Positions 17,055 to 47,461 of a DNA stretch of 64,000 nucleotides are shown piece by piece. The notes beneath the pieces were generated by a model. It was not told where the DNA came from. It was given only the letters and a program-made list of their open reading frames with translations, and searched no databases. Source of the stretch: Candidatus Aenigmatarchaeota archaeon. Lineage in GTDB: Archaea > Aenigmatarchaeota > Aenigmatarchaeia > PWEA01 > JACQIF01. How positions within the stretch are numbered: the first letter of the stretch is position 1; each line of letters opens with the position of its first letter. Position numbers and translations under genes: made by a program. The DNA lies in the NCBI GenBank assembly GCA_016432325.1, contig CP066684.1, forward strand, positions 785,090 to 849,089. The letters are read 5' to 3'.

Positions 17055-17290
17055 TGGCGCCCCCGGTGGGAATTGCGTTCGGCCTTTCGAAGAGTGGCCG
17101 GAGTGCAGACACGGGTGTCTGCTTTCGAACCCACGACCCCAAGGTGTCTGCCTTTGCAGAAATCTGCAAAAACCGCAACCTTGTGCTCCATATGCTCAAG
17201 TCCGCAAAGGGACTTTTCGTGAACGTTTTTGCGCGTTTAGCCTATGCGCATTGGCGCAAAAAGGTTCTTTCCAAGCTGAGCCACGGGGGC
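17055..17290 (-). tRNA. tRNA-Arg (anticodon GCG) with three introns (D-arm, anticodon loop, T-loop 59/60)
   Basis: Hand-folded: acceptor GCCCCCG/CGGGGGC, U8G9, D-stem GCTC/GAGC, anticodon stem CAAGG/CCTTG, loop TTGCGG..A, T-stem GTGGG/CCCAC with TTCGAA then an approx 51-nt insert, encoded CCA; overlaps spurious track ORF 17054..17557. Confidence 0.6.
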
Positions 17291-38892: not shown

Positions 38893-38998
38893 TGGTAGCG
38901 GGGGCACGATTTGAACGTGCGACCTCAGGGTTATGAGCCTTTAGCCAGCGTGCAAGAAGCACGTTGTCTGCGAGCACTCCAGGCTGCTCCACCCCGCT
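38893..38998 (-). tRNA. initiator tRNA-Met (CAU) with an intron in the anticodon stem
   Basis: Hand-folded: AGCGGGG/CCCCGCT acceptor with A1:U72, anticodon loop CUCAUAA, GG/CC anticodon-stem pairs, T-arm GCACG-UUCAAAU-CGUGC, encoded CCA; approx 28-nt insert between positions 29 and 30; TATA about 28 nt upstream. Confidence 0.65.
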
Positions 38999-43574: not shown

Positions 43575-44219
43575 TCAGCGCCTTCTGCGACCCTTGTACT
43601 CGTCTTCGTAGCTCTTCGCGAGGTCTGCTACGACGTCCTTGAGTCCGAGGCCGAGCGCTATCGCCACGCCGAGACCGACCGCCGCTACCAAAATCAGCAG
43701 TATCTCGTCGACGATGAGCAATGGGATTCCTATCACCCGCAGAGCCACAGACAGGCCGAGGTACATCACCAGGAAGAAGATGATCTTTCCTGTAAGCTTG
43801 GAATAGACCGTCCTCGAGCTGATGAGCTCCTCCTTGAAGTAGATTCCCACGGCATAAGCGACGAGCATGACGATGCCCGCTGCTATCATGTCCGGCAGGA
43901 AGCCTACGACTGTGCCCACGAACGCCGCCAGGGCTGCTATGCCCAGCACGTCCGCGGACGCCTGTATGAACACCAGATAGACTACCCAGCGGACTATCAT
44001 GTCCAGGAAGTGCGAAACGCTCACCTTGATGTGCGCTTCCTTCCTGAGTTCCTTGTCCACGCCTGCGCGCGTCAGGAGCTCGTAGGTCACCCTACCCAGG
44101 GCTCTGCCGATGATGTAACCCAGTGCCAGCAACACGACTGCTCCGGCCAGATTCGGGATGAATATCGCGAAACTGGTCCAAAGGTCGGTGGCAATGCCTA
44201 CTAAAACATCGACTGCCAT
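43575..44219 (-). CDS. membrane protein with repeated conserved TM-helix motif (MscS-associated TM_helix-like)
   Basis: 214 aa; repeated LAGAVVLLALGYIIGRALGRV-type helices, C-terminal basic tail. Confidence 0.4.
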   Translation of the reverse strand: MAVDVLVGIATDLWTSFAIFIPNLAGAVVLLALGYIIGRALGRVTYELLTRAGVDKELRKEAHIKVSVSHFLDMIVRWVVYLVFIQASADVLGIAALAAFVGTVVGFLPDMIAAGIVMLVAYAVGIYFKEELISSRTVYSKLTGKIIFFLVMYLGLSVALRVIGIPLLIVDEILLILVAAVGLGVAIALGLGLKDVVADLAKSYEDEYKGRRRR

Positions 44220-44338
44220 AGGCTACGTGCGCAGGAGGGGTTATTAAAGCTTTCTGCGCGAGGCGCGGAAAGTTAAGAACGGATGTTTTTGAGCTTTCTG
44301 ACTGACGTGCGTTGTGGCCAGAGGTTCAAAGTCATTGT

Positions 44339-44524
44339 TGGTGGGCCCGCTGTGATTTTCTCATACGCCGGAAGGCGTACTTTCCCTAAAGGCTTTTGGA
44401 CGGAAATGTCCAAAAGGCTTTGAACACAGGTTTCCAACATGTTAGCTCGTTCTTCATCTTCGCTTCAGAAGCTTAGAGACGAGTCCCCAAGCTGGAGTCC
44501 TAAACCAAGCTAGACTACGGGCCC
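44339..44524 (-). tRNA. tRNA-Pro (GGG or UGG anticodon) with two introns (anticodon loop and T-loop 59/60)
   Basis: Hand-folded: acceptor GGGCCCG/CGGGCCC, D-stem GUCU/GGAC, anticodon arm CCAGC-UUGGGG..-GUUGG split by an approx 44-nt insert, T-stem CUGUG/CACAG with UUCAAA plus an approx 62-nt insert containing a 10-bp hairpin, encoded CCA. Confidence 0.65.
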
Positions 44525-44549
44525 AGTGGGAATAACGCCACAGACCAAC

Positions 44550-44559
44550 CATTTATACT
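44550..44559. promoter_or_regulatory. single TATA element (ATTTATAC) centred between divergent tRNA-Pro and tRNA-Ala genes
   Basis: TTTATA at 44552-44557 lies about 28-30 nt from the 5' ends of both divergent tRNA genes (44524 minus, 44583 plus). Confidence 0.4.
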
Positions 44560-44582
44560 TGTTTACCAGAACGTGCCTTCGA

Positions 44583-44831
44583 GGGCAGGTAGTCGTAGCA
44601 CGCTTTTGCGAAAAGCGTGGGCAAAACGACGCCACCTATGGGCAGGTAGTCTAGACAGCACACTTTAAAAAAAGTGTGGGCAAAACACAAATTGCCAGCT
44701 GGGAAAACGGAATGACGTCACGTTCGCAACGTGAAGGTCGCGGGTTCAAACCGGGCTTTCTTCCAAAGAAAGCACGGGTGCAAAGAAGGTAAGCCTTCCG
44801 GCACTCAACGGAAATCCCGCCCTGTCCACCA
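44583..44831 (+). tRNA. tRNA-Ala (CGC) candidate with T-loop intron and a large insert in the D-arm region
   Basis: Hand-folded: acceptor GGGCAGG/CCUGUCC with G3:U70, anticodon arm UCACG-UUCGCAA-CGUGA, T-stem GCGGG/CCCGC with UUCAAA plus 64-nt insert, encoded CCA; 5' module GGGCAGGUAGUC occurs twice (44583 and 44640); D-arm not resolved. Confidence 0.5.
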
Positions 44832-44863
44832 TTTTTATACTTTACACTCTGTACGTTCCTTGC

Positions 44864-44973
44864 GGACCCGTAGCTCAGGTGGTTAGAGCGCTGCTCTGAT
44901 AGTTGGACATCGATACGTTGATGTCCTTTTGGTCAGGCAGAGGCCCGGAGTTCAAATCTCCGCGGGTCCACCA
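44864..44973 (+). tRNA. tRNA-Ile (GAU) with canonical 33-nt intron after position 37
   Basis: Hand-folded: acceptor GGACCCG/CGGGUCC, D-arm GCUC-AGGUGGUUA-GAGC, anticodon stem CUGCU/GGCAG, loop CUGAUA|intron|A, T-arm CGGAG-UUCAAAU-CUCCG, encoded CCA; TATA (TTTTTATA) about 25 nt upstream. Confidence 0.75.
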
Positions 44974-44990
44974 CAAATTTCAAGGCAAGG

Positions 44991-45055
44991 ATTTTCGAAC
45001 AAAGTTCGAAAACTTCGAACCGCTGTTCGAAGACAGTTGAAACGCGAAGCGTTTC
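44991..45055 (+). promoter_or_regulatory. TTCGAA motif cluster plus GAAACGC-GAA-GCGTTTC hairpin upstream of small membrane protein gene
   Basis: TTTTCGAACA, GTTCGAAAA, CTTCGAAC, GCTGTTCGAA (44991-45031) then palindrome GAAACGCGAAGCGTTTC (45039-45055); TATA-like CTTTTATA follows. Confidence 0.3.
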
Positions 45056-45103
45056 TTGGGGTCCACCAAAACCTTTTATACAGGGAACGTCGATAAACTC
45101 ACC

Positions 45104-45439
45104 ATGGCACTGCCCGCTATCGTCTGGCTCCTCGTTACGGCAGTAAACCTCATAGTTGAAGTGCTGGCCGCCGTCATTGCGTTCAATATGAGCCGCAAGG
45201 TCAAAGGCGACCTTCTGCGTAAGATGTTTATAACCTTCGGAATTATCATACTTCTCAACACGGCGGCTGACTTCAGCACATACCTTGTCTTTCAGGTGCC
45301 GTCAATCCAAGCAGCCGCCGCCGCGGCGAGCTCACCCCACAGCGATTTTGTCGTTGTCTTCAGGCTACTGAGCAACCTCGCACTCGTCTATATGATGACG
45401 CGTTTCGAGGAGTTCAAGAAGCAGTTCACATTCGGTTGA
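45104..45439 (+). CDS. small membrane protein
   Basis: Track ORF (TTG start at 45056) trimmed to ATG 45104 (MALPAIVWLLV); 3 TM helices. Confidence 0.4.
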   Translation: MALPAIVWLLVTAVNLIVEVLAAVIAFNMSRKVKGDLLRKMFITFGIIILLNTAADFSTYLVFQVPSIQAAAAAASSPHSDFVVVFRLLSNLALVYMMTRFEEFKKQFTFG

Positions 45440-45471
45440 GCTTTATATCTCTTATTCTCAAACTGGACTTG

Positions 45472-45697
45472 CGCCTGGGTGGCTCAGTGGTAGCGCCTTT
45501 TTGCTGCGGCAAAAACCCGCGGGAATGCACGGAACAACGTTCCGGCACATCGGGAGCGCACTCCCGAATGAAATCCGCGCCGCGCGCCTAAAGAGCACCA
45601 GACTCATAATCTGGGGGTCGTGAGTTCGAAGCCTTACTGCCCGAGAGGGCGGTAAGTGAAACGCGCAGCGTTTCAGGAGTTACTCACCCCAGGCACC
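45472..45697 (+). tRNA. elongator tRNA-Met (CAU) with two introns (D-arm approx 100 nt, T-loop 59/60 approx 51 nt)
   Basis: Hand-folded: acceptor GCCUGGG/CCCAGGC, D-stem GCUC...GAGC separated by a highly structured insert, anticodon arm CCAGA-CUCAUAA-UCUGG, T-stem GUGAG/CUCAC with UUCGAA plus insert, encoded CCA; TATA (TTTATATC) about 27 nt upstream. Confidence 0.65.
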
Positions 45698-45733
45698 ATA
45701 ATTCGATACAAGAACGTTGTATATTGTCGAGAA

Positions 45734-46027
45734 CTACGCCTCTACCGCTCCTGAATCGAGAGCGGCATAGGGAACGTTGACGCGTAGCGCAAGCGTGTAG
45801 AACGCAGCGCTGTTCTCGCCGCGCTCTTCCCTGAATACGGCGCTCTGCCTTTCAAGGCCCTGGAGACACGATCTCACGTCTTTCGTTTCCCATCCCGGGA
45901 ATGCATCGTATATGGTTCTTTCCTCGACTTCGCCGTCTCTTGCGATTATGTTCAGAATCCAGCTCTCGATGACGGTCTTGCGTTTCTCTGTTGCGCCGTC
46001 GCGCGCGAACCGCGAGAACGTGTTCAT
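45734..46027 (-). CDS. hypothetical protein
   Basis: Track ORF 45734..46198 trimmed to internal Met (MNTFSRF) because the 5' part overlaps a better-supported small Cys-rich ORF. Confidence 0.35.
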   Translation of the reverse strand: MNTFSRFARDGATEKRKTVIESWILNIIARDGEVEERTIYDAFPGWETKDVRSCLQGLERQSAVFREERGENSAAFYTLALRVNVPYAALDSGAVEA

Positions 46028-46077
46028 CGCGTCCAGTTGGACAAGATAGGATTTATACGCGAGAGATAAACAGTCGT

Positions 46078-46209
46078 TTACTTCTTCGGCTTCGCCTTGC
46101 ACGCCCTGCAGCCGTCGCGGCCTATGCAGGAGAGGCATACCTGCGACTTGCAGGCAACGCACTCGTGCATCTCTCCGACGCGCTGGCAGGCTTCGCATGC
46201 GCCTCTCAT
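46078..46209 (-). CDS. small 4xCxxC zinc-ribbon protein (43 aa), not in ORF track
   Basis: MRGACEACQRVGEMHECVACKSQVCLSCIGRDGCRACKAKPKK; TATA (TTTATATC on minus) about 25 nt upstream. Confidence 0.45.
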   Translation of the reverse strand: MRGACEACQRVGEMHECVACKSQVCLSCIGRDGCRACKAKPKK

Positions 46210-46240
46210 AGAAATCACATTCGTAAATGCAGGATATAAA

Positions 46241-46420
46241 TCAGAACGTTTCCTCTTCTGACTCGTCTGGCGATGCTTCTGCCATCGTGGCGCGGCCGTG
46301 GCATATCTGGCAGCCGTAGTCCTGCAGGCACTCGGCGCACACGCGCGCGGCGCAGACCGGGCATTCGCGCAGCGTGCGCACTACCTCTCCGCAATGCTGG
46401 CATACTCCTGCCATGTACAT
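46241..46420 (-). CDS. small 4xCxxC zinc-ribbon protein (paralog)
   Basis: MYMAGVCQHCGEVVRTLRECPVCAARVCAECLQDYGCQICHG...; same Cys spacing as 46078..46209; start may instead be upstream Met at 46489. Confidence 0.45.
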   Translation of the reverse strand: MYMAGVCQHCGEVVRTLRECPVCAARVCAECLQDYGCQICHGRATMAEASPDESEEETF

Positions 46421-46569
46421 ATCACCTGCCGGACAAGACGCATGAAACCCGGGGGCTTCACGGATGCCTCGACACTCGCGTAGAAACAAAAATTCATGTA
46501 TTTAACCTTTCTTAGGCCGACAGTCGACGAATTTTTAGCTTAAATAAAGTTGCGCAGAAGACGACTCGT

Positions 46570-46645
46570 GCCGCCATAGCTCAGCTAGTAGAGCACCTGA
46601 CTTGTAATCAGGGGGTCGAGGGGGCAGAGCCCTCTGGCGGCTCCA
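46570..46645 (+). tRNA. tRNA-Thr (UGU), intronless, with non-canonical D-loop and T-loop
   Basis: Hand-folded: perfect cloverleaf with acceptor GCCGCCA/UGGCGGC, anticodon loop CUUGUAA, encoded CCA, TATA about 27 nt upstream; D-loop AGCUAGUA lacks GG, T-loop GGCAGAG replaces the usual UUCRAAU. Confidence 0.55.
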
Positions 46646-47461
46646 CTATCTCGCCAAGCCCTTGAACTTCCTGACGATGTAAGACGTCACGAAGAATGCC
46701 AGGAATATGGCGGCCAGCTGGACGCCTCCTGCGATGGCGCCGAAAGGCCTTCCTGCCCTCGGATAGAGCATCTCCTGCAGTCCGCTCATCAGCACGAAGT
46801 CGAGCAGCAGGACGCTGGACAGATAGAGCCGGTTGATAATCTCCTTGTCTTGCGGAGGCAGTCTCTGCCTGAACGTGTCGTAGTCCCTCTTTGACAGCCA
46901 GAAGAGGCCCGCGACGACGAGCATGTTGACCGCGATAATAGAAGCGCCGTATGCTGGAAGACCGGCGAAGAAGACGCTAACGGTGTAAGACGCGCCGACG
47001 ACAAACGAAACAATAAGGGCAAGCCAAGGCCCGGGCTGGTTCAACCGCACGCTTCTCTCCAGCACTGCTTCGAGGCGCGTCGTCGTGTCTTCCAGAATCC
47101 GGACGGCGCCTCCGAGGACGTGCAAAAAGACGAAGAGGAAAGACGCCTGCAGCGCTACAAGACCCAGCAGCATCGAGTCCGCGACGAGAGGCGGAGACAG
47201 GAGGTCGGCGACGACGCGCGCCAGCATAAAGACGAGCACGTAGTGCACGAGAGCCGACAGCAGGCGAGCGACGGTTCGGCCTTTCGAGGCGCTGATTTTC
47301 CTGAAGTGCGCGACGTGCGTCAGCGTGGTGAACGAAAACAGCATCGCGGCTGTCATGGCGATGGACGCGTAGAAATCCGTTACGCTGGAGAGTGCGAGCG
47401 TGCCGGCGACGACGGCCACGGCCAGTATGAAGACGTCTTTTCTCGTAGACTCCATGGTCAT
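46646..47461 (-). CDS. polytopic membrane protein
   Basis: 271 aa, about 7 TM helices; starts immediately after tRNA-Thr on the opposite strand. Confidence 0.45.
   Translation of the reverse strand: MTMESTRKDVFILAVAVVAGTLALSSVTDFYASIAMTAAMLFSFTTLTHVAHFRKISASKGRTVARLLSALVHYVLVFMLARVVADLLSPPLVADSMLLGLVALQASFLFVFLHVLGGAVRILEDTTTRLEAVLERSVRLNQPGPWLALIVSFVVGASYTVSVFFAGLPAYGASIIAVNMLVVAGLFWLSKRDYDTFRQRLPPQDKEIINRLYLSSVLLLDFVLMSGLQEMLYPRAGRPFGAIAGGVQLAAIFLAFFVTSYIVRKFKGLAR

Follow-up and report, generated by a model that had tools for sequence, protein, structure and literature searches.

A 64,000-nucleotide (nt) stretch of the genome of a Candidatus Aenigmatarchaeota archaeon (GenBank assembly GCA_016432325.1, contig CP066684.1, positions 785,090 to 849,089), referred to below as the window, contains seven tRNA genes, of which six are interrupted by introns. 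An original prediction, made from the sequence alone, had placed seven genes of these isotypes at the coordinates given here, and each was recovered: the spliced forms were accepted by ARAGORN, and tRNA-Thr was accepted by the Rfam tRNA model. The genes are as follows (window positions).

17055-17290, minus strand: tRNA-Arg(GCG), 236 nt, three introns; spliced form of 78 nt including CCA passes default ARAGORN
38893-38998, minus strand: initiator tRNA-Met(CAU), one intron; spliced form of 78 nt passes default ARAGORN
44339-44524, minus strand: tRNA-Pro(GGG), 186 nt, two introns; spliced form of 78 nt passes ARAGORN
44640-44831, plus strand: tRNA-Ala(CGC), 192 nt, G3:U70, two introns; spliced form of 76 nt passes ARAGORN
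44864-44973, plus strand: tRNA-Ile(GAU), 110 nt, one intron; 57 bits with the Rfam tRNA model; spliced form of 77 nt accepted by default ARAGORN
45473-45698, plus strand: tRNA-Met(CAU), elongator type or Ile2, 226 nt, two introns; spliced form of 75 nt passes ARAGORN
46570-46645, plus strand: tRNA-Thr(UGU), intronless; 56 bits with Rfam; rejected by ARAGORN

The last five genes form the island that had been proposed; its coordinates held, and its strands, on which nothing had been said, put Pro on the minus strand. The acceptor stem of Pro (GGGCCCG/CGGGCCC) is palindromic, which masks the orientation of the gene. The initiator carries the expected identity features (A1:U72 and an anticodon stem with three G:C pairs at its base), and an encoded CCA, as had been claimed, is present in all seven genes.

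The ability of standard programs to detect these genes was low. Default ARAGORN found no tRNAs in the unspliced window, and with introns allowed it found only the initiator tRNA-Met (minus strand) and tRNA-Ile. At the Rfam gathering score, two of the seven genes were detected, Ile (44864-44970, aligned with a 34-nt insertion) and Thr (46570-46642); ARAGORN rejected Thr because its T loop is GGCAGAG. The Arg, Pro, Ala and Met genes were read by hand from a 7-base-pair (bp) acceptor stem, U8, T arm and NCCA at the coordinates above. Two structure-based scans of both strands of the window revealed no further genes ending in NCCA. Removal of the inserts in silico turned all six interrupted genes into complete cloverleafs of 75 to 78 nt, accepted by default ARAGORN, with anticodon and identity elements in place. 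The spliced cloverleafs agreed with the original prediction in the number and positions of the inserts, including a recurring one at 59/60. Altogether there are 11 introns (Arg, 3; Pro, Ala and Met, 2 each; Ile and the initiator, 1 each), located at 59/60 in Arg, Pro, Ala and Met, in the D loop in Arg, Met and Ala, at 37/38 in Arg, Pro and Ile, and at 29/30 in the initiator. They are listed here with their splice-junction motifs (BHB, bulge-helix-bulge).

17192-17270, minus strand: Arg D-loop intron, 79 nt, directly 3' of G18G19; strict BHB (central helix 4/4, outer 3, inner 3)
17146-17172, minus strand: Arg 37/38 intron, 27 nt; strict BHB (central 4/4, outer 5, inner 8)
17072-17123, minus strand: Arg 59/60 intron, 52 nt; the T stem is the 5-bp outer helix; 3/4 pairs between nt 54-57 and the intron 3' end
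38940-38967, minus strand: initiator Met 29/30 anticodon-stem intron, 28 nt; near-strict (central 3/4, outer 2, inner 2 plus 5 after one mismatch)
44440-44484, minus strand: Pro 37/38 intron, 45 nt; strict BHB (central 4/4, outer 6, inner 5)
44356-44418, minus strand: Pro 59/60 intron, 63 nt; the T stem is the outer helix; nt 54-56 paired with the intron 3' end
44657-44708, plus strand: Ala D-loop intron, 52 nt; equivalent boundaries 15/16, 16/17 and 17/18; no recognisable BHB
44751-44814, plus strand: Ala 59/60 intron, 64 nt; the T stem is the outer helix; nt 54-56 paired
44902-44934, plus strand: Ile 37/38 intron, 33 nt; central 4/4, outer 5; the inner helix begins after a 2-nt offset
45493-45592, plus strand: Met D-loop intron, 100 nt; equivalent boundaries 20/21 to 22/23; central 2/4, with a 4-bp helix on each side
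45631-45681, plus strand: Met 59/60 intron, 51 nt; the T stem is the outer helix; nt 54-56 paired

Next, the genes were compared with their orthologues. Contigs of relatives were fetched through homologues of two neighbouring proteins, and their tRNA genes were found by structural scan.

L031 and L140, contig SRR27109257_103764: identity to the window proteins of 66% for AlaX and 76% for the MscS-like protein; Thr of 310 nt (three introns), Met of 190 nt (three), Ile of 308 nt (three), Ala of 265 nt (three) and Pro of 163 nt (two)
L033, 3435-3670: Thr of 236 nt (three introns)
L141, JACQIF010000050.1: Pro of 195 nt (two introns)
L032, CP070662.1, a more distant archaeon: three genes of 141 to 260 nt, each with a T-loop intron

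Rfam detected none of the seven intron-containing tRNA genes of L031, L032 and L033, even at E≤1. After splicing, tRNA-Ile of the window and of L031 was identical over 77 of 77 nt, despite the 308-nt gene with three introns in L031, and tRNA-Ala matched that of L140 at 74 of 76. The differences in spliced Met, Pro and Thr were mostly paired and left the acceptor, anticodon and T stems intact; Met of the window and of L031 differed by compensatory changes in the acceptor and T stems, and the Pro orthologues of L140 and L141, which have introns at the same two positions, showed compensatory changes in the T stem. The Ala 59/60 intron is orthologous to the T-loop intron of L140 Ala. Since the exons are either kept or compensated across relatives, we took the inserts to be settled as introns of working genes. 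Of the three L032 genes, the one of 260 nt has the other two as neighbours: Ser(GCU), 246 nt long, and Val(UAC), 141 nt long.

The Ala D-loop intron is the least certain of the 11. Brute-force excision followed by ARAGORN accepted hundreds of alternatives for the Ala D arm and so did not discriminate among them. The model was set instead by the canonical D loop that its boundaries yield (AGACGGAA) and by the L140 orthologue, in which the exon blocks GTCTAGAC and GGAATGAC are conserved while the sequence between them diverges; retention of the two blocks around a changing interior fixes the otherwise uncertain model.

To characterize the splice junctions, BHB geometry was coded with the 4 nt before the last two exon nt paired with intron positions -5 to -2, both cut sites in 3-nt bulges, an outer and an inner helix on either side, and product-equivalent boundaries allowed. 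The canonical introns of Arg and Pro fit this geometry perfectly, which validates it. Each of the 11 junctions was tested for a BHB or a relaxed motif (hBH or HBh'). Strict motifs were present at three junctions, namely the D loop and 37/38 of Arg and 37/38 of Pro. Another five (the four at 59/60 and Ile 37/38) were relaxed, having a helix on each side of the 3' bulge, and three were below threshold. In the same precursors, 1.9% of arbitrary positions attained any motif class, versus 8 of the 11 junctions.

The 59/60 introns share a uniform architecture. In all four, the 5-bp T stem forms the outer helix, nt 54-57 are placed to pair with the four intron nt that precede its last two, and the 3' bulge consists of the last two intron nt and nucleotide 60. 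The analysis was extended to 14 T-loop introns (4 from the window and 10 from relatives), with shifted positions as controls. All 14 had at least three of the four central-helix pairs (mean of 3.36 versus 1.43 for controls), and nt 54-56 were all paired in 12 of 14, versus 6.8% of controls. The intron end covaries with the T loop: TTCA and TTCG loops lie opposite GAA-type ends, GGCA of L033 Thr lies opposite TGTC, and TGCA of L031 Thr lies opposite GGTA. At both 37/38 and 59/60, the intron falls between the sixth and seventh nt of a 7-nt loop, and the first four loop nt pair with the intron 3' end to leave a 3-nt bulge at the 3' splice site. As modelled, the 59/60 intron thus transfers the canonical 37/38 geometry to the T arm, the other place where a 5-bp stem closes a 7-nt loop. 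The 5' splice site at 59/60 has no defined inner helix, which makes these introns relaxed (hBH-type) substrates. The uniform geometry provides a clear, testable substrate rule for a DPANN splicing endonuclease.

Upstream and downstream sequences were also examined. For the initiator Met, Pro, Ile, Met and Thr, the mature 5' end is preceded by a TATA-like hexamer with its first nucleotide at -30 to -33. Three further features flank the Pro, Ala and Ile genes.

44552-44557, both strands: TTTATA/TATAAA element, 33 nt upstream of Pro (minus strand) and 31 nt upstream of 44583 (plus strand)
44583-44639, plus strand: partial tandem duplicate of the Ala 5' end, 57 nt (exon nt 1-12, first intron hairpin, GGGCAAAAC)
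44974-45070, plus strand: trailer after Ile, with intron-like hairpins and a second copy of the gene 3' end (GGGGTCCACCA)

Pro and Ala, on opposite strands, therefore have one TATA element in common, and its spacing for Ala fits only the start of the duplicate at 44583, not the functional gene start at 44640. The TATA box that had been proposed upstream of each gene was accordingly found for six genes, in the case of Ala only by way of the duplicate. The duplicate hairpin matches the D intron of L140 Ala at 27 of 30 positions and is closer to it than to the window's own functional copy; the 5' duplication is absent from the L140 orthologue. The duplicate is probably a structured leader or a relic. 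It was also considered as a twelfth intron and rejected, as no splice motif was present at any of 13 equivalent excisions. The Ile trailer matches the L031 Ile D intron (27/31) and the window's Met T intron (17/18), and ends in its second GGGGTCCACCA, immediately upstream of the TATA box that follows. The trailer is probably what remains of an ancestral copy rich in introns. Separately, GGGGTTATTAAAGCTT (44238-44253) was considered as a stranded old Pro promoter and dropped; its other strand lies at promoter distance from the start codon of the MscS-like gene.

To determine whether introns share sequence, 35 intron and flank sequences (2.5 kb) were compared all against all. Twenty-six similar pairs were found at E≤0.01, of which 23 were non-orthologous (8 of these at E≤1e-4), whereas 30 dinucleotide-preserving shuffles produced 0.7 pairs on average, with no pair reaching E≤1e-4. 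Modules of 14 to 31 nt recur in non-orthologous tRNAs, at other positions and in other genomes. Exact blocks of 12 and 17 nt occur both in the Met D-loop intron of the window and in the T-loop intron of L031 Ile; a 26-nt module of the Arg D-loop intron matches the L141 Pro T-loop intron (24/26), and a 23-nt module of the Pro T-loop intron matches the L140 Ala anticodon-loop intron (22/23). The Ala D-loop intron (44657-44708) shares 19 exact nt, in the opposite orientation, with the anticodon-loop intron of L033 Thr. This module (AAAAGTGTGGGCAAAACAC) is also present in the L031 Thr anticodon-loop intron, the orientations being opposite relative to the host tRNA, which spread at the RNA level alone, for example by reverse splicing, would not readily explain. 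Some of the short matches could be convergent GNRA or UUCG-like tetraloop hairpins; the matches of 17 to 31 nt are not. A metagenome scan for the inverted module, with the pattern AAAGTGTGGGCAAA(N)CAC, gave 105 matches, all in unrelated contexts and consistent with chance. One tRNA gene of L032 (10713-10972 of CP070662.1, 260 nt) was observed to contain the same 34-nt sequence, AAGAAAGCTTTTTAGAAAAAAGCTTTAGCAAAAA, in two introns, in addition to a T-loop intron.

These results suggest, with a probability that we put at about 90%, that the window contains functional tRNA genes of Candidatus Aenigmatarchaeota (DPANN) interrupted by 11 protein-spliced introns. Each gene would be transcribed from its own TATA promoter approximately 30 nt upstream; the tRNA splicing endonuclease (EndA) would cut at BHB or relaxed BHB motifs, an RtcB-type ligase would join the exons, and the encoded CCA would form the 3' end. 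From the sequence we infer the splicing enzymes, the order of the cuts and the excision of the introns. Several observations weigh against this account. The initiator Met 29/30, Met D-loop and Ala D-loop junctions miss the motif thresholds, and at the last no motif is recognisable, so that the BHB expected at each junction was obtained in strict form at three, in relaxed form at five, and in weak or unrecognisable form at three. The T-loop introns have no defined inner helix and would thus require an endonuclease of relaxed specificity, and a tblastn search of the window and of L031 to L033, with one query modelled on M. jannaschii EndA, gave no EndA match. The Arg promoter is ambiguous, lying either at -57, in common with a plus-strand open reading frame (ORF), or at -15, and the 57-nt duplicated leader of Ala is unexplained.

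The recurrence of intron modules in the manner of a repeat family, one of them in both orientations, the gene-end relics that flank Ala and Ile, and the junctions that lack a good splice motif would also be expected of decaying pseudogenes hit by small hairpin-forming repeats and never spliced. However, the exons are perfectly or nearly perfectly conserved while proteins are only 63 to 76% identical, and changes in stems are compensatory; the inserts occupy splice-competent positions with motifs far above chance, a promoter and CCA are kept in every gene, and no other copies were found within the window. Pseudogenes are therefore very unlikely. Removal of the inserts by a route other than EndA and BHB motifs, such as self-splicing or the trimming of separate pieces, as in split or permuted tRNAs, is just as improbable. 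The Ala and Met D-loop introns and several D-loop introns of relatives, which have no convincing motif, would fit such a route, but the inserts, at 27 to 100 nt, are too small for group I or group II introns and had no match to a known RNA family in Rfam up to E=10 (44000-47000). Moreover, all exons are colinear at one locus, in one transcription unit behind a single promoter with one TATA element, and the remaining junctions fit EndA geometry.

Because the source is a metagenome-assembled genome, the inserts and duplications might be thought to be artefacts of assembly. The same architecture with different intron sequences was nevertheless present in independent assemblies of other samples (L031/L140, L033, L141 and L032), nor are the two Ala copies a collapsed repeat, since they differ in sequence and the hairpin changes between them are compensatory. 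An artefact is the least credible of these alternatives, to the point of being negligible.

With the inserts read as protein-spliced introns, their gain and loss can be considered. Intron numbers in the window and its closest relatives are 0 and 3 for Thr, 1 and 3 for Ile, 2 and 3 for Met, 2 and 3 for Ala, and 2 and 2 for Pro. AlaX is 63 to 66% identical in all pairs of the three lineages, which are thus roughly equidistant, and the Thr anticodon-loop intron is clearly homologous between L031 and L033 (38/42). Taken together, these make loss in the window's lineage a simpler reading than gain, although the tree on which this inference stands is weak. Module sharing of this kind has been read as intron transposition in Thermoproteales (PMC4090602, PMC4033280). 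A tentative and rather doubtful proposal is that the introns belong to a few hairpin-module families of this clade that are currently mobile, colonising the D loop, 37/38 and 59/60 in either orientation and being acquired and lost over spans of time comparable to species divergence. If so, the window lineage would have lost at least five introns precisely (three from Thr, two from Ile, one from Met and one from Ala), recombination would have left its traces in the duplicated 5' end of Ala and in the trailer 3' of Ile, and the clade would be a natural system in which to observe tRNA intron insertion and loss in the act. A review has called for snapshots of tRNA intron insertion and loss (PMC4033280); close relatives that differ in introns at the same sites, and tRNAs that share modules, are such snapshots.

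Archaeal tRNA genes with as many as three introns, and archaeal tRNA introns at 20/21, 29/30 and 59/60, have been published (PMC4090602, PMC4033280), 29/30 being a published non-canonical position (PMC4090602). Relaxed motifs are cut only by broad-specificity endonucleases, and the lineages listed are Crenarchaeota (above all Thermoproteales), Nanoarchaeum, Methanopyrus, Korarchaeum and ARMAN (PMC4090602, PMC4033280, PMC5829648). Two Asgard groups in which 92 to 95% of tRNA genes contain introns were added in 2024 (PMC11291895). The earlier statement that such genes are characteristic of only a few archaeal lineages is therefore dated, since intron-rich sets are also reported in ARMAN and Asgard (PMC4033280, PMC11291895). 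As a taxonomic clue the genes point to an archaeon with a broad-specificity splicing endonuclease. Two window proteins, the alanyl-tRNA editing protein and a hypothetical protein (locus tag HYS81_05200), are identical to entries listed by NCBI under Candidatus Aenigmatarchaeota. Other window proteins, including an S-layer protein, a Hel308-type helicase with archaeal domain 4 and topoisomerase IA, likewise indicate archaeal DNA. The G+C content is 53 to 60% throughout the window, and the same DNA is present in assemblies of run SRR12113385.

Thermoproteales, in which large-scale intron transposition was reported (Sugahara 2008 and Fujishima 2010, as summarised in PMC4090602 and PMC4033280), resemble the window in several respects. 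In Pyrobaculum, Thermofilum and Caldivirga, as those summaries describe them, there are up to three introns per gene, at 20/21, 29/30 and 59/60, with strict and relaxed BHB motifs, and introns of similar sequence recur from one tRNA to another, at differing positions. In contrast, the window lineage belongs to DPANN (Aenigmatarchaeota) and not to Thermoproteota, its clade recurrently has one intron per loop (D loop, 37/38 and 59/60), and one module is inverted. ARMAN-1 and ARMAN-2 (Candidatus Micrarchaeum, epsilon-2 endonuclease) are also small-genome DPANN with multiple non-canonical introns that need a broad-specificity EndA (PMC3239211, PMC5829648), but the window organism is from a different phylum. 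The Asgard groups Atabeyarchaeia and Freyarchaeia share the very high intron density, the many non-canonical positions and the several introns per gene, and in their complete genomes over half of the tRNA genes have several introns (PMC11291895); they belong to an unrelated superphylum, and the likeness is taken from the published description. A full-text search found no literature report of multi-intron tRNA genes for Aenigmatarchaeota. The gene structure is thus already known in kind and new for this lineage.

A genome-collection search with the Hel308 helicase returned only relatives of at most 48% identity, without synteny, and the tRNAs that Rfam found at their loci were mostly ordinary. 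The multi-intron habit is not general across all Aenigmatarchaeota loci fetched, and it seems confined to a higher-G+C subclade that includes the window. At three AT-rich Aenigmatarchaeota loci (L007, L026 and L029), the Rfam-found tRNAs were 69 to 75 nt and hence without introns. Incomplete tRNA sets in new DPANN genomes have been taken to suggest unidentified disrupted tRNA genes (PMC5829648). Because standard finders miss most such genes, the tRNA counts used to grade DPANN bins, and inferences of "missing" tRNAs, will be wrong for this clade.

The introns had also been proposed as a source of structured RNA. Hairpins do form, but no support for a function beyond that was obtained, and inspection by eye revealed no clear boxes of C/D-box guide RNAs.

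Some minor features of the locus were recorded. The Pro gene has the same orientation as its MscS-like neighbour in the window and is divergent from it in L140 (5721-5883) and L141 (2014-2208), which implies that the gene was inverted in one lineage. The Thr T loop, GGCAGAG, lacks both U54 and U55, and its D loop (AGCUAGUA) lacks G18G19; both forms are kept in L033, while Thr of L031 (9989-10298) has the T loop UGCAAAU and the D loop AGCCAGGA in their place. Given these atypical loops, the normal D-loop/T-loop contacts must be changed in this tRNA. Small Cys-rich proteins (MxGVCQHCGEVVR..CPVCAARVC..C...YGC.IC.GR) adjoin tRNA-Thr in the window, L031 and L033, and the second paralogue in the window is shorter. 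The corresponding ORFs are located as follows.

46241-46420 and 46078-46209 of the window, both minus strand: Cys-rich protein ORFs by tRNA-Thr
approximately 10405-10580 of L031: Cys-rich protein ORF by tRNA-Thr
approximately 3775-3945 of L033: Cys-rich protein ORF by tRNA-Thr

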